Shown here: piece by piece, positions 1-59,227 of the stretch
Position numbering within the stretch: the first letter of the stretch is position 1
How the letters are laid out: each line of letters opens with the position of its first letter
Origin: Candidatus Omnitrophota bacterium
GTDB taxonomy: Bacteria; Omnitrophota; Gorgyraeia; JAHJTE01
Length of the DNA: 64,000 nt
Direction: 5' to 3'
NCBI GenBank assembly: GCA_040753675.1
Contig: JBFMEB010000004.1
Span: forward strand, 4,288-68,287
The notes under the pieces: generated by a model
Seen by the model: only the letters and a program-made list of their open reading frames with translations
What the model was told of the DNA's origin: nothing
The model's database searches: none
Program-made: the position numbers and the translations under genes

Positions 1-2125
1 CCATAACCTCGGGTATTTTCTTGGCTATGCCTCGTCGTAACATATCTGCTTGAGATAGGCTAAATCCAGCCAAGTCGCTTGCTATGCGCATAACCTGTTC
101 TTGGTATACGATTATGCCATAAGTCTCCTCTAAGATAGCTTTTAATGCCGGATGTTCATAATGTATAGAGACCTTACCATGTTTTCTATTAATAAAATCA
201 TCCAGCATCCCGCTTCCGATAGGGCCCGGGCGATATAAAGCCAGAAGAGCAATTAAATCTTCAAAGCGGCTTGGGATTGTCCGCTTTAATAGATCGCGCA
301 TACCTGAACTTTCTAACTGGAAAATGCCGATTGATTTTGCACTGGCTAGCAACTTAAATGTCTTTGTATCATCTAAAGGAATTTGTTCAAAATTAATATC
401 GATATTGCGTCTCTGCTTTATAATTTTTATAGCATCTTCTTTCACTGTAAGTGTTCTTAAGCCCAGAAAATCCATTTTTAAAAGACCGATTTTCTCTAAG
501 GCAGTCATAGAATATCCAGTGGTAATCTGTTCATCAGTCTTAAATAAAGGGGCGTATTCGGTAAGAGGACGGTCAGAAATTACTACCCCGGCAGCATGAG
601 TCGATGCATGCCTGGTTAAGCCCTCTAAAACTTTAGCAGTATCAATAAGTTTGGTTATCTGCTTATCTTCGTCATAAAGCTTTTTGAGTTCAGGTTCTTG
701 CTTTACTGCTTCAGATAAACTTATATTCGGATCAGGCGGAACCAATTTTGCAATTCTGTCAACATCTGCATAAGCAATACCCATAACCCTGCCTACATCT
801 CGAATCGCCGCCCGCGCCTGCATTGTCCCAAAGGTAATGATTTGCGCTACGTTATTAACAGAATATTTTTTCGTCACGTAATCAATTACTTCCTGCCTTC
901 GTTCGTAACAAAAATCAATATCTATATCCGGCAGGCCCAAACGCGCAGGATTTAAGAAACGTTCGAAAATCAGACTGTATTTTAAAGGGTCAATATCAGT
1001 AATCCCTAATAAGTAGCTTACAAGACTTCCCGCTGCAGAACCGCGTCCCGGACCAACTGGGATATGTTGTTCCTTTGCATAACGAATAAAATCCCAGACG
1101 ATTAAAAAGTAACTGGTAAATCCAGTTTTTTCTATAATTTCTAACTCGTGCTTAAGACGTTCTTCTACAGCAGCGGTTGGATTCGGATATCTTTTTTTTA
1201 AGCCCTCTTTACATAAATTTAGTAAAAAGTCCTGCTTGCTTTTGCCATTCGGCACTTCAAAATGAGGCAAGTGAATCTGAGAAAAATCAAATTCAAGGTT
1301 GCATTTCTCCGCAATGACAATGGTATTAGTTAACGCCTCTGGGCAATAGGAAAAACGCTGTTTCATCTCCTGCGCACTTTTAAAATAGAATTCATCTGTC
1401 TGAAATTTCATCCGATTCGGATCTTGTAAGGTAGTCTGTGTTTGTATGCATAAAAGTGCCTCATGAGCAGGTGCGTGCTCTTTTAAAGGATAATGCACGT
1501 CATTTGTTGCAACCACTGGAATATTCAGTTCTTTTGAAATCTTGAGCAGTCCTTCGTTTACTTTTGACTGCTCTGGGATCTTATTTTCTTGGATTTCTAA
1601 ATAAAAATTCTCTTTGCCAAAAATCTGATAATATTCATCAGCTACCTTGAAGGCATCATTCATACGTTTGAAATTTATTAGATACGCAATTTCGCCTTTC
1701 AGGCAGGCACTTAAACCAAGTAGGCCTTCGCAATATTCGCTTAAAGTCTGTTTATCAATTCTTGGCCGGTAATAAAAACCCTCCAGATAACCGATGGAAA
1801 TCAGCTTCATTAAATTCTTATAGCCAATTTCATCCTTGGCTAATAATATTAAGTGGTATGCTGCTTCTTCATTTAAAGATATTGTTCTATCCCGCCTGTC
1901 TTTGGGAGCAACATAAACTTCGCTACCAATAATTGGTTTGACCCCGGCATTCATAGCTGCAAGGTAGAAATCTATTGCACCAAACATATTGCCGTGGTCG
2001 GTTATGGCTAAGGCAGGCATTTTATACTGTTGGGCAAGCTTTACTATTTCGCTGATTCGGCAGGCGCCGTCTAAGAGGCTATATTGGGTGTGCAAATGAA
2101 GGTGGACAAAATCAGAGTGCTGCAT
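1..2125 (-). CDS. dnaE: DNA polymerase III alpha subunit, N-terminal ~708 aa (PHP domain and polymerase core); C-terminus lies beyond the window start
   Basis: Minus-strand ATG at 2125-2123 reads MQHSDFVHLHLHTQYSLLDGACRISEIVKLAQQYKMPALAITDHGNMFGAIDFY..., a typical DnaE PHP N-terminus. My own translation stays open to position 1. Not in the ORF track because it is truncated by the window edge. Confidence 0.85.
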   Translation of the reverse strand, partial: MQHSDFVHLHLHTQYSLLDGACRISEIVKLAQQYKMPALAITDHGNMFGAIDFYLAAMNAGVKPIIGSEVYVAPKDRRDRTISLNEEAAYHLILLAKDEIGYKNLMKLISIGYLEGFYYRPRIDKQTLSEYCEGLLGLSACLKGEIAYLINFKRMNDAFKVADEYYQIFGKENFYLEIQENKIPEQSKVNEGLLKISKELNIPVVATNDVHYPLKEHAPAHEALLCIQTQTTLQDPNRMKFQTDEFYFKSAQEMKQRFSYCPEALTNTIVIAEKCNLEFDFSQIHLPHFEVPNGKSKQDFLLNLCKEGLKKRYPNPTAAVEERLKHELEIIEKTGFTSYFLIVWDFIRYAKEQHIPVGPGRGSAAGSLVSYLLGITDIDPLKYSLIFERFLNPARLGLPDIDIDFCYERRQEVIDYVTKKYSVNNVAQIITFGTMQARAAIRDVGRVMGIAYADVDRIAKLVPPDPNISLSEAVKQEPELKKLYDEDKQITKLIDTAKVLEGLTRHASTHAAGVVISDRPLTEYAPLFKTDEQITTGYSMTALEKIGLLKMDFLGLRTLTVKEDAIKIIKQRRNIDINFEQIPLDDTKTFKLLASAKSIGIFQLESSGMRDLLKRTIPSRFEDLIALLALYRPGPIGSGMLDDFINRKHGKVSIHYEHPALKAILEETYGIIVYQEQVMRIASDLAGFSLSQADMLRRGIAKKIPEVM

Positions 2126-2131
2126 GGTGAG

Positions 2132-3673
2132 TTATTCCCACTCAATTGTAGCAGGAGGCTTTGAGCTGATATCGTAGACTACGCGATTTACGCCCCTTAC
2201 CTCATTTATTATTCTGTTTGAAATCTTTTCTAAGAGTCTAAAAGAGAGTTTTGCCCAGTCCGCAGTCATACCATCTAGGCTAGTCACGCAGCGAATAGCC
2301 ACAACATTTTCATAAGAACGCTTATCGCCCATTACCCCGACTGTCTTTATAGGTAAGAGTACTGCAAATGCCTGCCAGATCTGGTGATATTTTTTTGCCT
2401 TCTTAATCTCCTCAATAACAATATCATCTACTTCTCTTAAGAGATCTAACCGCTCTTTAGTAACCTCGCCAATAATCCGTACTGCCAAGCCCGGCCCTGG
2501 AAAAGGATGCCGTTGCGCAATATGCTCTGGTAAGTCTAAAACCTTAGCAATCTCTCTTACTTCATCTTTAAATAATTCTCTCAATGGCTCAATAAGTTTT
2601 AATTTGAAATTTTTAGGTAAGCCTCCGACGTTATGATGGCTTTTTATCCTTGCGCTGGGTGAGCCGATAGGAGAAACAGATTCTATAACATCTGGATAAA
2701 GAGTTCCTTGGGCTAAGAATTTTGCATCTTTAAATTTTACTGCCTCTTTCGTAAAAACCTCGATAAATTCTTTGCCAATAATCCTGCGCTTCTGTTCAGG
2801 GTCAATCACTCCTTTTAATTTATCCAAAAATCTGCTTTGTTCATTTACAAAGTCAATATTAAGGTTGAGATTATCCTGGAATACTTCCTTAACCCTTTTT
2901 GCCTCATCCTTTCTTAATAGGCCGTTATCTACAAATATGCATTTTGACTTATTCCCAATCGCCTTATGCAATAGTAGAGCCAAAACCGAAGAGTCCACGC
3001 CGCCAGAGAGGCCACAGATAACCTCCCCCTCTTTAACTTTTTCTCTAATCTGGTTAATTGCCTCACTTACAAAAGACTCTATCTGCCAATTGCCACGGCA
3101 GCGGCAAATTTCAAATAGAAAATTTGCCAAAATATTTTTTCCCAAAGGGGTGTGCACTACTTCCGGATGGAACTGCACGCCAAAAATTTTATTTTTAGTG
3201 TTGCTGACAGCAGCAAATTTAGAATTTTTAGTGTGGGCGATTGACTTAAAATCAGGTGGTAATTTCTTTAAAGAATCTCCGTGGCTCATCCAGCATGTAA
3301 TTTTTTTTGGTATGCCCCTAAATAGACCCTTTGCATCATTTATAAAAAGTGTTGCCTTGCCATATTCGCGCTTAATTCCCTGATTAACCTCACCGCCTAA
3401 ATTCTGGCCGATTAATTGCATCCCGTAACAAATGCCTAAAATCGGTAATCTTAATTTAAAAATTCCTTTGTTTGGATGTGGCGAGCCTTTATCGTAGACG
3501 CTGGAAGGACCTCCGGAAAGAATAATGCCTTTAGGATTAATTTTGCGAATGGTAGAGACTGAGATATTGAAAGGGACAATCTGACTATAGACTTTAAGTT
3601 CTCGAATTCTACGAGCAATTAACTGAGTATATTGAGAGCCAAAGTCTAAGATAATGACGGTTTCACGCAACAC
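2132..3673 (-). CDS. guaA: GMP synthase (glutamine-hydrolysing)
   Basis: 513 aa with a GATase-1 N-terminus ([18 protein letters not shown]...CYGMQ) and an ATP-PPase motif (SGGVDSSV) followed by the GMP synthase C-terminal domain (PATIEWE end). Confidence 0.95.
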
Positions 3674-4846
3674 TTACTTTCCCATCCCTACGCGCTGCAC
3701 TGCCTGGAAAATTTTTCCTTCTGTCTGAATCGAGGGAGCAATGATTATTTCTACATCGTGCATCTGTTTTATATTAGCAGCACCTAGCGACCCCATAGAA
3801 GTAGCAAGAGCTCCCATTAAATTCTGAGAGCCGTCATCTACCTTTGCCGGCCCAAAAAGTATCTCTTCCAATGAACCAGCAGTGCCTACTTTGATCCGTG
3901 TGCCGCGAGGTAGGTTTATATTGCTTGTGGCCATGCCCCAATGAAATCCTTTTCCCGGTGCTTCCTTAGCCCTGGCAAAAGAAGAACCAATCATTACTGC
4001 ATCTGCGCCGCTGGCAAATGCCTTACAAATATCTCCTCCGGTACGCATACCGCCGTCACAAATAATAGCTATATATTTTCCAGTTCGCTTATAATAATAA
4101 TCTCGCGCTGCAGCTGCATCTATGGTTGAGGTTACCTGAGGCACACCAATTCCTAAAACACCTCGTGTGGTGCAGGCTGCGCCAGGTCCTATTCCGACTA
4201 GTACTCCAGCAATGCCAGTACTAAGTAGCTCTAAGGTAACTTCATAAGTAACACAATTCCCGAGTAATACTGGAACTCTCATACTTCTTACAAAGGCGGC
4301 AATGTCTAATGACTTATATGCCTTAGAAATATGGCGCACAGTGGTAACTGTGGACTGAACTACAAAAAAGTCAACCCCTGCTTCCTGAGATATCCTGCCA
4401 AAACGCTCTGCGTTAGCAGGCGTGCAACTCACTATTGCACAAACACCTTCTTTTTTTATCTGGCTTATTCTTCTGGAGATAAGTTTTTCTTTAATCGGCT
4501 CTTTATAAATTGCCTGAACTAATTTTGTTGCCTGTTCAGTGCTGGCTTTGGCGATTTTGCCTAAAACCGTAGCAGGATTTTCATACCTGGTCTGCACGCC
4601 TTCAAGATTTAAGACTGCTAAGCCACCTAACTTACCCATAGTAACGGCAAAATGCACATCAACCACGCCATCCATTGCTGCGGCGATAATTGGAACTTTA
4701 AATTTCTTGCCGTCTAATGTAAAACTGGTATCTACATCCTCTGGATTTATGGTTATTGTTCCCGGCGCTAAAGCAATTTCATCAAAGCCATAACAGCGCC
4801 GTGCTCGCCTTCCTATTCCAACCCATTCTGCCATATAATACCTCAC
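3674..4846 (-). CDS. guaB: IMP dehydrogenase family protein, short form lacking the CBS pair (catalytic Cys loop present)
   Basis: 390 aa TIM-barrel IMPDH fold with the catalytic loop GIGPGAACTTRGVLGIGVPQ and the motif GGMRTGGDICKAFASGADAVMIGS. Lies immediately upstream of guaA. Confidence 0.75.
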   Translation of the reverse strand: MRYYMAEWVGIGRRARRCYGFDEIALAPGTITINPEDVDTSFTLDGKKFKVPIIAAAMDGVVDVHFAVTMGKLGGLAVLNLEGVQTRYENPATVLGKIAKASTEQATKLVQAIYKEPIKEKLISRRISQIKKEGVCAIVSCTPANAERFGRISQEAGVDFFVVQSTVTTVRHISKAYKSLDIAAFVRSMRVPVLLGNCVTYEVTLELLSTGIAGVLVGIGPGAACTTRGVLGIGVPQVTSTIDAAAARDYYYKRTGKYIAIICDGGMRTGGDICKAFASGADAVMIGSSFARAKEAPGKGFHWGMATSNINLPRGTRIKVGTAGSLEEILFGPAKVDDGSQNLMGALATSMGSLGAANIKQMHDVEIIIAPSIQTEGKIFQAVQRVGMGK

Positions 4847-49394: not shown

Positions 49395-49671
49395 GGACAT
49401 TCGCCGAAGCCAAACGCAAAGCATTTGGCGAAGGCGAATGGACAGGAGAGGATTTGAACTTACCATAGGGGCTCTCTGCCCCTCCATGGCGTCGTCACCC
49501 CAAGGCTGACTCCTGTCACCCCGTAGTGTAACTAAAGTTAGCTATTCTTGAGGGGAAAATCATCTTTTCCCCTCAAGCTCCTCTTTTGTTCAAATCCTTA
49601 CTGGCGTTAAATTCTTCGAAGCTTAAACATGAAGCGAACGCAGTGAAGCGAAATATTTAAGCGTAGTAGAG
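49395..49671. mobile_element. Small inserted element (212-bp core at 49460-49671) flanked by a duplicated tRNA-Tyr 3' end
   Basis: TGGACAGGAGAGGATTTGAAC occurs at 49439-49459 and again as the real tRNA-Tyr 3' end at 49672-49692. A diverged duplicate of the tRNA-downstream flank lies at 49395-49438. The core carries hairpins AGGGGCTCTGCCCCT and GGGGAAAATCATCTTTTCCCC, also found at 58206-58430. Confidence 0.5.
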
Positions 49672-49753
49672 TGGACAGGAGAGGATTTGAACCTCTGAAG
49701 CTATGCGCAACAGATTTACAGTCTGCCCCCTTTGGCCACTTGGGTACCTGTCC
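49672..49753 (-). tRNA. tRNA-Tyr (anticodon GTA), long variable arm
   Basis: Manual fold: acceptor GGACAGG/CCTGTCC, anticodon stem GCAGA/TCTGT with loop CTGTAAA, long variable arm, T-arm AGAGG-TTCAAAT-CCTCT, discriminator A. Confidence 0.8.
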
Positions 49754-49842
49754 GTTAAAAAAATTATTGCTAAATTGCTATCTGCTAAATTGCTTTTTAT
49801 ATGACAATTTAACAATGGAACAATATAGCAATTTATATTTTA

Positions 49843-49918
49843 TGGAGCCGACGAGAGGAATTGAACCCCCGACCCAGGGTTTACAAAACCCTTGCTCTAC
49901 CAACTGAGCTACGTCGGC
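49843..49918 (-). tRNA. tRNA-Thr (anticodon TGT), CCA encoded
   Basis: Manual fold: acceptor GCCGACG/CGTCGGC, D-arm GCTC..GAGC, anticodon stem AGGGT/ACCCT with loop TTTGTAA, T-arm CGGGG-GTTCAAT-TCCTC, 3' TCCA. Confidence 0.8.
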
Positions 49919-49991
49919 ATATTTAAATTGTCAAATTGTCGAATTGTTAATTGTTATTTTCGATGCTAAAACAGTCTAACAATTTAGCAGT

Positions 49992-50870
49992 TTAGCAATT
50001 TAACTTTTTTCTGCTACTTCTCTTTATGGCTTCTGGAATCTTTTCAATCAAATCCGAAGCAATTAAACCTAATTCGCCTTTTTCTTTTGCCGCCAAATCT
50101 CCTGCAAGGCCATGTATATATGCACCGAATTTTGCAGCGGAAAAGCTATCCAGGCCTTGGGCTAAGAATGCACCTACAATTCCAGTCAGGCAATCGCCCA
50201 TTCCTGCGCTAGCCATTCCCGGATTTCCGGTTCTGTTAACGTAACAATTTTTTGAATCTGCTACTAGTGTATTGTGCCCCTTTAAAATTAAAGTCACTCC
50301 AAACTCTTTGGCAAATTTAGTTGCAACAGATTTTCTATTTTCCTGGATATAGGAAACAGTTTTTCCTGTTAGCCTCGCCATTTCGCCAGGATGCGGAGTA
50401 AGTATTCGCGTATTGCGTATAGCGTGTTGCGTATTGCGTAAAATATTTAAGTGGCCGGCAAGTGCATTAATAGCGTCGGCATCAATTACCATAGGAAGCT
50501 TGCAGGTCTTGATAATTTTTCGCACTAACACTTGAGTCGACGAATTAGCAGACAAACCCGGACCTATGGCTAAACAATCGCACTTTTCTAAAAAATTATT
50601 TATTTTTTTATAGGCCTTATCGCTTAACGTCTGGTTTTTAGTTTCAGGCAGCGCTAAAGTCATTACTTCAATTAATTGCTTTTCAAAGACCTCAATTAAA
50701 GTTTCCGGTACACCTAGCGTAACTAACCCTGCGCCTGCCCGTAGACAAGAGCGCGCTACCATAACAGCTGCTCCGGTTAAGCCAGATGAACCAGCTAAGA
50801 GGAATAAATGGCCAAAATCGCCCTTATGCGAGTCTTTCTTTCTTTTCAACAACTGCGCTGGCAACCGCAT
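49992..50870 (-). CDS. nnr: ADP-dependent NAD(P)H-hydrate dehydratase (YjeF C-terminal domain family)
   Basis: 292 aa; SHKGDFGHLFLLAGSSGLTGAAVMVAR and GPGL motifs. Overlaps the acpS 3' end, as is common. Confidence 0.85.
   Translation of the reverse strand: MRLPAQLLKRKKDSHKGDFGHLFLLAGSSGLTGAAVMVARSCLRAGAGLVTLGVPETLIEVFEKQLIEVMTLALPETKNQTLSDKAYKKINNFLEKCDCLAIGPGLSANSSTQVLVRKIIKTCKLPMVIDADAINALAGHLNILRNTQHAIRNTRILTPHPGEMARLTGKTVSYIQENRKSVATKFAKEFGVTLILKGHNTLVADSKNCYVNRTGNPGMASAGMGDCLTGIVGAFLAQGLDSFSAAKFGAYIHGLAGDLAAKEKGELGLIASDLIEKIPEAIKRSSRKKLNC
50408..50440. repeat. Imperfect heptamer tandem repeat (CGTATTG/CGTATAG/CGTGTTG/CGTATTG) inside nnr
   Basis: Read directly. Encodes LRNTQHAIRNTRI in frame. 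Confidence 0.6.
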
Positions 50871-58117: not shown

Positions 58118-58194
58118 TGGTGGCGGGGGAGGGATTTAAACCCTCGACCAATCGGGTATGAGCCGAATGCTCTATCGGGCTGAGCTACCCCGCC
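58118..58194 (-). tRNA. tRNA with CAT anticodon (elongator Met or lysidine-Ile2), CCA encoded
   Basis: Manual fold: acceptor GGCGGGG/CCCCGCC (1-72 paired), D-arm GCTC..GAGC, anticodon loop CTCATAC, T-arm GAGGG-TTTAAAT-CCCTC, 3' ACCA. The anticodon stem lacks the three consecutive G:C pairs of initiator tRNA. Confidence 0.75.
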
Positions 58195-58205
58195 GTCGTT
58201 CGCTA

Positions 58206-58430
58206 ATTATCTAATCAATGTGCGCACGCAAAAAATATTTATTGATTTATCTATTAATTTTCTCATTATCGGATGACGCTCACTCCCCATAGGGGCTCTG
58301 CCCCTCTGGCGGTCGCTACGCTCCCTGTCACCCCGAAAACATGGGGAAAATTCTTTCCCCATACCCCTTTGGTTCTCGGCTGTATTAAAAGCTAAATCCT
58401 GCTTCGCAGGATAACAGCCTACGAACCTCT
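58206..58430. mobile_element. 225-bp inserted element related to 49460-49671, flanked by 11-bp direct repeats GTCGTTCGCTA
   Basis: Direct repeats at 58195-58205 and 58431-58441. The second copy overlaps the acsE stop codon. Shares CCATAGGGGCTCTGCCCCTC, GGCGGTCG, CTCCCTGTCACCCCG, and GGGGAAAATTCTTTCCCC with the tRNA-Tyr-adjacent element. Confidence 0.45.
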
Positions 58431-58438
58431 GTCGTTCG

Positions 58439-59227
58439 CTACTTTTTCCTATACGCGCTCAAGAAAGAATCACAATAGATATTTTTATTTAAAAGTAATT
58501 CTGCAGTAATTACCGCATCCATCAAGTCTTTATCTAACGGGTCAACTATTGCTGCATCAAGACCGTATGCAGTTGCCATGGTTAAAAATATTCTATTTAT
58601 AATATTTCTTTCACAAGTGCCCTGAGAAACATTGCTTAAACCTACGATTGTCTTTGGCGCAGGTTCGGAGATTACTTTAAACTCATGCAAAACTTCTAAT
58701 AATATTTTTAGCTGTGACTGGGCAACATTAACTGGCAAAACTATTGGGTCAAGATAAATTTTATTAATATCGAAATTTTTCTCTTGGCAAAATGCTAAAA
58801 TTTGCGCTGCTAATTCTAAGCGCCGGTCTTTATCCTGAGGCACGCCTTTTTTATCCATAGTTAACGCAATTAACGATGCATTATATTTAATAGCCATATC
58901 AACATAAATCTCAAGCCGCTCTAAATCAGCGCTTGTAGAATTAATTATAGCATTTCCTTTACTTAGCTCTAAGCCTGCTTGAATTACATTTGGCTTAGTG
59001 CTGTCAAGGACAAGGGGTAATTTCGATGCCTTTTTAATTGAATTTATTAACCACGTCATGTCGCCAAGTGGATCTTTGGATAACGGCCCACAGTTAACAT
59101 CAAGCGCATTTGCTCCAGCTTCCTCCTGGTCTTTTGCTAACTTAATAATGGCACTTTCGTCTTTTTTAGCAATTGCCTCTCGAACATTTTTATACATCCC
59201 GTTAATCAGTTCACCAATTATAAACAT
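58439..59227 (-). CDS. acsE: Methyltetrahydrofolate:corrinoid iron-sulfur protein methyltransferase (pterin-binding, MeTr)
   Basis: 262 aa; MFIIGELINGM...ALDVNCGP...INSTSADLE...DPIVLPVNVAQ...GLSNVSQG. Colinear with Moorella AcsE, which I recall as MLIIGERINGMF...NVGP.... Confidence 0.85.
   Translation of the reverse strand: MFIIGELINGMYKNVREAIAKKDESAIIKLAKDQEEAGANALDVNCGPLSKDPLGDMTWLINSIKKASKLPLVLDSTKPNVIQAGLELSKGNAIINSTSADLERLEIYVDMAIKYNASLIALTMDKKGVPQDKDRRLELAAQILAFCQEKNFDINKIYLDPIVLPVNVAQSQLKILLEVLHEFKVISEPAPKTIVGLSNVSQGTCERNIINRIFLTMATAYGLDAAIVDPLDKDLMDAVITAELLLNKNIYCDSFLSAYRKK

Follow-up and report, generated by a model that had tools for sequence, protein, structure and literature searches.

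In a 64-kb stretch of a contig from a Candidatus Omnitrophota bacterium, which in its full length is called the window in the following, the 3' end of a tRNA-Tyr gene is present twice, and the question arises what the short piece of DNA between the two copies is, how it got there and what may have moved it. The last 21 nt of the intact gene (49672-49692), which read as the reverse complement of tRNA-Tyr G53-A73, represent the left copy of a direct repeat. The window contains exactly two occurrences of the repeated sequence TGGACAGGAGAGGATTTGAAC (49439-49459 and 49672-49692), and none was obtained in 100 shuffles, which confirms the duplication described in an initial annotation of this DNA. 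The two copies are separated by 212 bp (copy-to-copy offset, 233 bp), and the right one is a displaced fragment without the 5' strand of the T-stem. Because the 212-bp unit sits between the intact tRNA gene and the displaced second 3' copy, the tRNA stays functional. Related units are inserted at the 3' ends of tRNA and transfer-messenger RNA (tmRNA) genes with the gene preserved, are spread across phyla, form strand-specific hairpins and encode no enzyme, and they very probably constitute a mobile, non-autonomous family of tRNA-end insertions.

The insertion becomes apparent from a locus of another Omnitrophota genome (L087; loci outside of the window are designated by L numbers), which was found via a homologue of the GIY-YIG nuclease gene adjoining the element and comes from a relative more distant than the window's own species. 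The gene order of this locus corresponds to that of the window (NAD(P)H-hydrate dehydratase gene, tRNAs, GIY-YIG), and its tRNA-Tyr 3' end is directly followed by TTCGCCTTCGC...GGCGAATG...ATGTGGTATGT, the same sequence that follows the right repeat in the window. Since the site in L087 is empty, the window carries 233 extra bp (212 + 21), and the initial proposal of an insertion at a tRNA 3' end is borne out both by this empty site and by the tRNA linkage of the family. The predicted empty tRNA-Tyr site of the window's exact species had no match in a metagenome scan, and exact-protein look-ups of three window proteins gave no match either. The locus L049 contains the same Thr-Tyr-Gly tRNA cluster and carries an element after tRNA-Thr instead. 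Behind its tRNA-Tyr, there are only a spacer, an inverted T-arm copy and a T run without any core (L049:2617-2668), with tRNA-Gly located 52 nt on; as judged from its sequence, this coreless stretch may be either an element remnant or a terminator for which the tRNA's own T-arm provided the sequence. The presence or absence of the element differs between related genomes, and its copies are spread across phyla.

A scan with the pattern CCATAGGGGCTCT(0-3 nt)GCCCCTC, performed with one genome per species, yielded 86 matching loci compared to about 4 expected by chance, and four of the matches (L001, L007, L028, and L077) look like chance hits, as judged from the surrounding sequence. The carriers belong to the Omnitrophota, Planctomycetota (Pirellulales, Phycisphaerae, and Sedimentisphaerales), Thermodesulfovibrionia (Nitrospirota), and Zixibacteriota, in addition to NPL-UPA2, FCPU426, CSSED10-310, and one metagenome-assembled genome (MAG) of the Desulfobacterota; CP070830.1, CP070678.1, and OY970359.1 are complete genomes among the carriers. 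The tRNA-sense strand, which is the reverse complement of the 20-mer emphasized in the initial annotation, is referred to as the M strand. On this strand, a tRNA or tmRNA gene precedes 58 of 85 copies at a distance of 40-340 nt, while 5 more follow tRNAs missed by ARAGORN, some of them owing to group I introns, and 8 are cut by contig ends. The family is overwhelmingly tRNA-linked, and the census of the 20-mer did not reveal many non-tRNA loci without duplications. The expectation that copies are tRNA-adjacent is supported by the 58 copies downstream of same-strand genes, but not to the extent of being always true, as non-tRNA variants exist. The host genes code for tRNA-Ser (17), Gln (9), Arg (8), Met (6), Asp (4), and tmRNA (4), with the remainder comprising tRNA-Thr, Glu, Val, Gly, Asn, Cys, and Tyr, which makes 12 tRNA species plus tmRNA in all. 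Individual subfamilies are each confined to tRNAs with one common 3' end, such as three tRNA-Ser isoacceptors.

The elements are about 150-250 bp long, contain no open reading frame (ORF) of their own and share a layout in which, on the M strand, the intact tRNA is followed by 5-70 nt of spacer, a T-arm copy (antiT) that is inverted, has diverged somewhat and ends with GAACC(C) or GAGAACC, the core, and the second tRNA 3' part. A terminator-like hairpin with a T run is present in the spacers of L034, L051, L053, L060, and L078. The complementarity of antiT is greater to its own tRNA than to other tRNAs, with mean local scores of 9.8 vs. 7.0. In the tRNA-Tyr copy of the window, the core is closed by an 11-bp inverted repeat that had been missed in the initial annotation, consisting of AGGATTTGAAC (49449-49459) and GTTCAAATCCT (49588-49598), and antiT can pair with either copy of GTTCAAATCCT. 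The core begins with a purine arm AAAGGGGU, which is followed by the hairpin P1, the motif G(U/C)YKUY, the invariant block GGGGUGACAG, the variable hairpin P2, and finally P3 with the sequence (G/A)CCA-GAGGGGC-AGA-GCCCCU-AUGG. P3 is continued by a hairpin AAAYYYGC...GCRRRUUU in the Planctomycetota type and by a purine-rich linker GGAGCGAACG...GAGCGAC in the Omnitrophota type. The right end of the unit is GGTTC, after which the second tRNA copy covers the positions from around 50 up to the discriminator base.

In about 45 loci, the right copy repeats the tRNA 3' end exactly, mostly over 14-41 nt and in one case over 71 nt, and the exact identity most often starts from T-loop position G57 (ggttc|GAATCC...). 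Right copies starting there consist of xGGTTC, YAR, a small hairpin, G, and GAATCC..., or alternatively show a G57C exchange; in many copies, a hairpin preceded by TAG is located exactly between the TTC and the GAA of the right-repeat T-loop. An intact T-loop in the right copy, with the repeat extending further to the left, is found in L015, L021, L027, L031, L042, and the window. Relative to the tRNA end, the repeats terminate at -1 to +4 nt, or 7-38 nt into the flank in some loci, and an encoded CCA lies outside of the repeat in L037, L079, and L081. Decayed right copies, as expected of a displaced fragment, are present in L002, L010, L043, L073, and L080, and what looked like two extra repeats, in L058 and L081, is in fact a second tRNA gene and a masked stretch. 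A small palindrome CCTGCCTGC...GCAGGCAGG is inserted at differing positions, namely in the right-repeat T-loop in L025, between P1 and GGGGTGACAG in L083, and also in L044, and looks as if it were itself a tiny mobile hairpin.

The core had initially been described as hairpin-rich and conserved, and it indeed contains three hairpins, with P1 covarying across 61 sequences. An RNAalifold consensus over these sequences revealed 24, 26, and 13 compensatory double changes at three pairs of P1, and this hairpin is lengthened by three pairs (GGU with GYY) for which only the M strand gives G-U or G-C. The search pattern predetermined P3; in L060, a copy retrieved with the covariance model reads CC-GACCCCGC-AUAU-UGCGGGGU-AUGG and keeps the P3 helix via G/C swaps. 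The mean folding energy amounts to -78.8 kcal/mol for the M strand vs. -69.4 kcal/mol for its complement, and the respective numbers of G-U pairs are 433 vs. 193. The triloops of the variable hairpins on the M strand are of the GNA type in 57 of 109 cases (36 of them C-GAA-G), with TNC occurring only 4 times. Because C-GNA-G loops (GCGAAGC type) are known as unusually stable DNA mini-hairpins rather than RNA motifs, a single-stranded DNA form is no less likely than RNA. The M strand is the one richer in G at 53 of 78 loci, and likewise in each of the 5 non-tRNA variants, a bias which is confounded by tRNA and gene orientation. The minus strand of the window is G-rich throughout and bears most of the genes, and since the M strand is G-rich and co-oriented with the genes there, it is probably the lagging-strand template. 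Moreover, the purine arm is a mirror image of the P1 5' strand (AAAGGGGT-N-TGGGGAAA), with covarying run lengths in the two. The mirror matches amount to 6.75 of 9 positions vs. 5.17 +/- 0.14 with the arms shuffled between sequences, and the mirror-repeat pairs of the window are located at 49578-49587 with 49547-49577 and at 58363-58371 with 58341-58362. As far as can be told from the sequence, the purine mirror repeat and P1 have the layout of a putative intramolecular triplex (H-DNA-like). The core is a conserved, strand-specific set of hairpins across phyla and not a decayed att-site remnant, which had been one of the identities considered initially.

A related core close to tRNA-Met had likewise been reported in the initial annotation, and its common features recur as stated. 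The two window copies share the core 20-mer with a 2-nt indel (49463-49484 and 58287-58306), the sequence CTGTCACCCCG (49513-49523 and 58325-58335), and the hairpin GGGGAAAAT...TTTCCCC. They were aligned by BLAST and an anchored alignment; plain MAFFT misaligns them. The covariance model of the family gave only two matches in the window, with 29 bits for 49463-49562 and 90.9 bits for 58287-58383. According to this model, the homologous core is confined to the latter positions and does not cover the entire range of 58206-58430 that had been assigned to it. The position beside tRNA-Met is correct, but the copy lies on the 5' side of this gene (minus strand, 58118-58194) and not on the 3' side. 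The flanking 11-bp direct repeats GTCGTTCGCTA are exact at both sites, as had been claimed. This copy represents the tRNA-less kind, which consists of AGAGGTTC-GTA, the hairpin GGCTGT...ACAGCC, GAGAACC, and the core, with an 11-bp duplication, the left copy of which runs into the stop codon of the adjoining gene; the left part of the element copy replaces the tRNA 3' end and antiT, and the layout is the same as in Omnitrophota-type copies. The coordinates of all features are listed in Table 1.

Tandem copies are present in L003, L025, and L059, and a second, incomplete copy breaks off at ...GAGAACC(N)AAA in L038 and L053 and after GGGGTGACAG in L049. L005 contains a 5'-truncated copy with its own tmRNA-end repeat at a distance of 4.46 kb from the tmRNA gene. 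The 4.46-kb segment between the two tmRNA 3'-end repeats (L005:2752-7132) codes for an 1100-aa LamG-domain protein as its only ORF and not for an integrase, and may be either a cargo-carrying relative or a later insertion. In the non-tRNA copies (three from Zixibacteriota, L029, and L054), a 34-nt palindrome of their own replaces the hairpin of tRNA and antiT, and flanking repeats are absent. The right ends of these copies are GCTAAGTTC in the three Zixibacteriota copies, which have unrelated flanks, and AACTTG in L029 and L054. The variant of L029 (1451-1544) is located in frame and without stop codon inside a 1360-aa PAS-domain ORF (528-4610, minus strand).

Table 1. Features of the two element copies and the adjoining genes in the window, with the basis of each assignment.
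Feature	Positions	Strand	Basis
tRNA-Tyr (GTA), intact	49671-49753	minus	ARAGORN; Rfam tRNA, 59.1 bits
Spacer of the element, about 71 nt, starting with CTCTACTACGCTTAAA...TTTAAGCTTCG	49600-49671	minus	sequence
antiT, inverted copy of tRNA-Tyr T-loop and T-stem, minus strand AAGGATTTGAAC	49588-49599	minus	inverted repeats I11, I12
Purine arm, minus strand AAAAGAGGAG, mirror of the P1 5' strand	49578-49587	minus	mirror repeat general in the family
Hairpin P1, perfect 13-bp stem	49547-49577	minus	inverted repeat I6
Extra small hairpin AGCUAACUUUAGUUAC, in this copy only	49528-49543	minus	fold; not in the family consensus
GGGGTGACAG, invariant single-stranded block	49513-49522	minus	(nearly) invariant columns in 61 sequences
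Variable region P2, here with a second GGGGTGAC	49490-49512	minus	alignment, covariance model
Hairpin P3, minus strand CCATGGAGGGGCAGAGAGCCCCTATGG, containing the 20-mer of the initial annotation	49463-49489	minus	shared-core match, family fold
Right copy of the tRNA-Tyr 3' end (G53-A73)	49439-49459	minus	exact repeat; alignment to the genuine tRNA-Tyr 3' end at the L087 empty site
Leader hairpin of the adjoining GIY-YIG cassette, outside of the 212-bp element	49398-49440	minus	inverted repeat I3; kept directly 3' of tRNA-Tyr in L087
GIY-YIG nuclease gene, 81 aa	49089-49334	minus	PF01541, E=1.9e-14
11-bp direct repeat GTCGTTCGCTA, overlapping the stop codon of a pterin-binding (AcsE-like) ORF (58439-59227)	58431-58441		exact
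Left part of the second copy: AGAGGTTC-GTA, hairpin GGCTGT...ACAGCC (58378-58419), GAGAACC	58373-58430	minus	sequence
Second core copy: AAAGGGG, P1 (58341-58362), GGGGTGACAG (58325-58334), P2, P3 (58287-58309)	58287-58383	minus	covariance model, 90.9 bits
Degenerate right part: diverged linker and AT-rich stretch up to tRNA-Met	58206-58286	minus	sequence; no model match
11-bp direct repeat GTCGTTCGCTA, adjoining the tRNA-Met 5' end	58195-58205		exact

A search of Rfam at the gathering thresholds and at E<=10 let only tRNAs pass, with Clostridiales-2 as the best other hit at 22.2 bits vs. a threshold of 58.6 bits; the Rfam check suggested initially did not assign the core to any RNA family. Viral contigs and the records of phages and plasmids contained nothing that matched the element, no paper came up in a full-text search of the literature for its 15-20-mers, and keyword searches on GIY-YIG with tRNA and on miniature tRNA-linked elements brought up only mitochondrial, phage or unrelated work. 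The 3-kb surroundings of about 80 copies contain no recurrent integrase, transposase, recombinase or reverse transcriptase. The ORFs within the element have no Pfam match and no enzyme is encoded, in agreement with the initial statement that the insert is too short for an integrase gene. Of the miniature integrative element suggested at that time, the gene-less tRNA-end insertion is retained and the integrase is not, since none is found next to the copies. An integrase is only one of several possible engines, because none is nearby, the core is no remnant and variants occur at non-tRNA sites. Several other identities were rejected. The 51-aa and 53-aa ORFs are devoid of Pfam matches and not conserved between the two window copies, which argues against protein coding, and a tmRNA, permuted tRNA or tRNA-like fold is contradicted by negative ARAGORN and Rfam results and the missing acceptor 5' strand. 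Real group I introns are present in the anticodon loops of some host tRNAs, but the element itself gives no model match; just two of four G runs covary, as opposed to a G-quadruplex; and consensus scans for an intrinsic terminator or promoter remained at background level.

With respect to the mechanism, the acting form may be the folded tRNA-sense single strand, and the moving enzyme would be encoded elsewhere in the genome, with an HUH single-strand transposase of the IS91 kind as the best-fitting enzyme class. The folded single strand is about as likely as not, while the IS91-like HUH enzyme is a tentative and rather doubtful choice, even if it is ranked first among the known engines; the statement as a whole, a non-autonomous mobile family acting as a folded single strand and moved by such an enzyme, has roughly equal chances of being right or wrong. 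The tRNA 3' part, and in some copies also a terminator, would be carried along by the element, and this would account for the survival of insertions into cognate tRNAs only. Members of the IS91 family use insertion sites adjoining 5'-GTTC or 5'-CTTG and leave no target duplication; the terminal GTTC of IS801, IS1294, and IS1294b is accompanied by one subterminal palindrome, while IS91 itself ends in CTCG (PMC13181058). They have palindromes inside the ori end, form single-stranded circles and often carry neighboring DNA along, and ends of 89 + 82 bp are enough for transposition (PMC13181058). In the element described here, the left junction is located after the T-loop GGTTC, and the right ends are GGTTC, GCTAAGTTC or AACTTG, each directly after a hairpin. 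As GTTC is present in every tRNA T-loop, only the five non-tRNA copies provide independent evidence for an IS91-like process. Target duplications are not observed in the non-tRNA variants, and the tRNA-type copies are flanked by the tRNA-end repeat.

Several points weigh against this proposal. The enzyme is purely inferred, because no transposase or recombinase recurs within 3 kb of the copies. Transposition of the IS91 type does not produce a tRNA-end repeat, and an extra capture of the tRNA 3' part would be needed. The left ends differ by tRNA species and therefore do not represent a sequence-defined origin, and the left cleavage site would fall inside the potential duplex of the tRNA T-arm and antiT. 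In L026, it is the right copy rather than the left one that looks foreign to the tRNA, which does not fit a simple left-carried model. Finally, the strand-specific G-U pairs suit RNA as well as single-stranded DNA, and the evidence from strand and GC skew is confounded by the orientation of the tRNA genes.

The repeats and tandem arrays are best accounted for by a miniature integrative element or "solo attP," which would be served by a trans-encoded tyrosine, Xer-like or integron-like recombinase acting on the tRNA T-arm. The recombining form would be either a circle or a folded single strand, the element would carry the tRNA 3' part, and the displaced native part would correspond to attR. Repeats of variable length at tRNA and tmRNA 3' ends that always reach to the gene end are the classic integrase signature, the tandem arrays suit repeated integration, and the confinement of subfamilies to tRNAs sharing one 3' end as well as the terminators supplied after the rebuilt tRNA in L051, L053, and L060 are consistent with this explanation. 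In addition, antiT and the repeat would form a duplex mimicking the target with a perturbed center (hairpin, G57C or a 3-nt bubble), as known from attC and CTX attP, and the 4.46-kb cargo of L005 is located between tmRNA-end repeats, with the right end of the element adjoining the second one. However, the lack of an integrase extends to this cargo segment in addition to the surroundings (<=3 kb) of the approximately 80 copies, no phage, plasmid or viral relative was found, the right-repeat T-loop is mostly interrupted where an intact 7-bp overlap is needed, the non-tRNA variants are not flanked by repeats, and the T-loop reads GTT-C-RRRY instead of the integron core site GTTRRRY. Taken together, a recombinase of this kind is regarded as unlikely.

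A still less likely possibility is a new class of elements using the antisense T-arm as a guide. In this case, the folded single strand would insert at the T-loop and supply the replacement 3' end, it would be retargetable between tRNAs while encoding no protein, and the enzyme or chemistry involved would be one not yet linked to transposition. The purine mirror repeat could then form an intramolecular triple helix in the active fold.

The GIY-YIG nuclease gene next to the element is located outside of the 21-nt repeats and hence does not belong to the 212-bp element; its product is 100% identical to P0001 of an Omnitrophota MAG. Homologues occur directly behind tRNA genes in L087, L089-L093, and L094 and are flanked by a tRNA 3'-end repeat. 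The GIY-YIG family was surveyed in 80 metagenome loci (L095-L174), 65 of which contain enough upstream sequence. A same-strand tRNA gene is located <=400 nt upstream in 59 of these 65 loci, mostly tRNA-Ser, with tRNA-Pro, Arg, Met, Ala, Gln, and tmRNA as further hosts, and a tRNA-end repeat of at least 11 nt is present about 26-35 nt after the ORF in 50 loci. As indicated by these numbers, GIY-YIG cassettes are a second, much commoner kind of tRNA-end insertion that is separate from the element, and no description of such a cassette was found in the literature searched. The repeats behind the ORFs are 11-25 nt long, and in the leader hairpin the tRNA ...GCCA plus 3 nt pairs with NNNTGGC, a pairing which covaries. 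The core gave one weak match (17.6 bits) and none that was convincing in the 80 loci, and L087 carries the cassette at tRNA-Tyr without the element, suggesting that the two are neighbors in the window mostly because of a common landing site. The GIY-YIG gene noted initially in the same tRNA cluster is confirmed by its PF01541 match, but a general co-occurrence with the core is not. The gene is the only recurrent neighbor of the element that is not explained by synteny: it comes immediately after the right repeat in three cases (the window, L078, and L079), and is found nearby in L076 and L081. In L078, the loop of the T-loop hairpin of the element houses the cassette, which is accompanied by a 25-nt repeat of its own. 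The start of the window spacer, CTCTACTACGCTTAAA...TTTAAGCTTCG, is similar to the cassette leader CTACGCTAAAGCTTCG of L087 and L089, as judged by eye. Cassette and element can still interact, as indicated by the nesting in L078 and the leader-like spacer.

In a homing scenario, the nuclease would cut the tRNA 3' part, and both the cassette and the ORF-less element would be copied in by break repair as passengers. This idea draws on GIY-YIG being the only non-syntenic protein family recurring beside the element, on the same tRNA-end signature of the cassettes (59 of 65 and 50 loci, as given above) and on the nested cassette of L078; in addition, a homing endonuclease of the GIY-YIG type, SegB of phage T4, belongs to a cluster of tRNA genes (PMC2330249). 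It is nevertheless very unlikely, because the core has at most one weak match in the 80 cassette loci, the cassette of L087 manages without the element, copying between alleles does not explain 13 target kinds each having its own antiT and repeat, and a catalytic domain of 80 aa has no obvious means of sequence recognition. Highly improbable, finally, is a structured non-coding RNA co-transcribed with the tRNA and freed by tRNA processing, with the repeat as fold partner of antiT instead of an insertion footprint: the constant tRNA-sense position just downstream of the gene, the strand-specific G-U pairs and loop bias, the unpaired invariant blocks kept across phyla and the variable hairpins at set positions, which are typical of RNAs, would all suit such a molecule, which can coexist with mobility, but terminator-like hairpins and T runs intervene between tRNA and core in the five loci mentioned above, right repeats decay in a pseudogene-like manner in five others or extend into the flank, copy number and host tRNA differ between relatives, the C-GNA-G triloops are known from DNA mini-hairpins and not as RNA motifs, and no Rfam family matches.

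Some further features of the tRNA loci were observed in passing. Short repeats of the TGCTAAATTGCT or CAATTTAGCA type are present in direct and inverted orientation on both sides of tRNA-Thr in the window (49760-50000), and comparable repeats, resembling CAATTGAGCAAT or CAGTTGAACAG, are located behind the elements of L033, L040, and L072. Group I introns (Rfam RF00028, 76-80 bits) split tRNA genes hosting the element or the GIY-YIG cassette at L087:1566-1794, L078:2647-2921, and L034:2192-2498; the one of L087 resides in the anticodon loop of tRNA-Tyr, and the end of an HNH-like ORF is located upstream of that of L034. L087 also contains, at 1081-1160 and 1330-1390, a tRNA-like sequence (GCTGGCGTAGCTCAG...TTGGTAGAGC) with a hairpin of about 50 nt in the D-loop and a stray tRNA-Thr 3'-end fragment after the intact tRNA-Thr. 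The MAG UBA9089 (L047:5900-6193 and L013:270-350) harbors short units consisting only of GGGGTAACAG, P2, and P3-like parts (CCATAGGGGTGAAACCCCTTGG), which are arranged in tandem and adjoin a tRNA on the opposite strand.

The element should be of clear interest for specialists of mobile DNA, as it represents a compact, sequence-defined substrate for finding an enzyme acting on tRNA-gene DNA, and is conserved nearly at the base level across Omnitrophota, Planctomycetota, Nitrospirota, and other phyla which have hardly been studied experimentally. It is also a source of mis-annotations in the form of spurious ORFs, tRNA fragments and assembly breaks. If it were true that the antisense T-arm directs targeting, this would be a natural case of retargetable site selection. 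The side result on GIY-YIG may be the more general biological finding, as these small genes are overwhelmingly tRNA-Ser cassettes with a tRNA-end repeat.

A comparison with known systems reveals partial similarities to several of them. As in the IS91 family, GTTC or CTTG abuts one end of the element, the other end is GTTC with a palindrome just inside, the ori end contains palindromes, the process would be strand-specific with co-mobilization of neighboring DNA, and the size corresponds to a minimal pair of ori and ter ends (150-250 bp). Unlike in that family, no Y2 transposase is encoded near any copy (within 3 kb), no sequence relationship to known IS91 ends is apparent as far as testable, the tRNA-type copies have a long tRNA-end repeat not made by IS91, and the left end is derived from the target and varies by tRNA. 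With miniature inverted-repeat transposable elements (MITEs) and palindromic repeats such as Correia, RPE, REP/BIME, and the PATEs of IS200/IS605, the element shares its short, ORF-less, hairpin-rich, multi-copy, and non-autonomous nature, and one variant (L029) even resembles RPE by its in-frame insertion into an ORF. However, its duplications are not of fixed length (14-41 and up to 71 nt, 11 nt at tRNA-Met, none in three Zixibacteriota copies), its inverted repeats copy the host tRNA, no autonomous relative was found near the copies or in viral, phage or plasmid records, and it strictly prefers tRNA 3' ends and is shared between phyla instead of being restricted to one lineage.

Integron attC sites and the folded attP of CTX likewise rebuild a duplex site with an imperfect center by folding of a single strand, and have GAAC...GTTC boxes closing a variable structure. 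The boxes of the element, ATTC-G-AAC and GTT-C-GAAT, are one base longer than RYYYAAC/GTTRRRY, its core is conserved in sequence, and no cassette array is present, although no search for IntI was made. Free-standing GIY-YIG genes such as segB of T4 and the cassettes reported here are similarly located directly after a same-strand tRNA with its 3' end duplicated in the same way, but the 212-bp element encodes nothing and shows no general co-occurrence with them. The elements mobilized by tyrosine integrases (phages, integrative and conjugative elements, and islands), CIMEs, and IMEX relying on host Xer also use the T-loop and 3' part of tRNA or tmRNA genes, restore the gene, leave the displaced 3' fragment as direct repeat and form tandem arrays, whereas the element is a gene-less unit of 0.2 kb for which no integrase-bearing relative was found, with a core of strand-specific hairpins and a usually interrupted T-loop in the right repeat. 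Restoring the 3' end of a tRNA gene upon insertion is an established strategy, and miniature non-autonomous elements are also known already. To our knowledge, the new aspect is their combination in a gene-less unit of about 200 bp with a strand-specific structured core and a target-derived inverted T-arm, serving 12 tRNA species plus tmRNA across phyla, and the family has apparently not been described before. Genes for tRNA and tmRNA are the classic landing sites of large integrative elements, and the same trick of inserting and rebuilding the gene is performed here by a unit of about 200 bp without any gene of its own.

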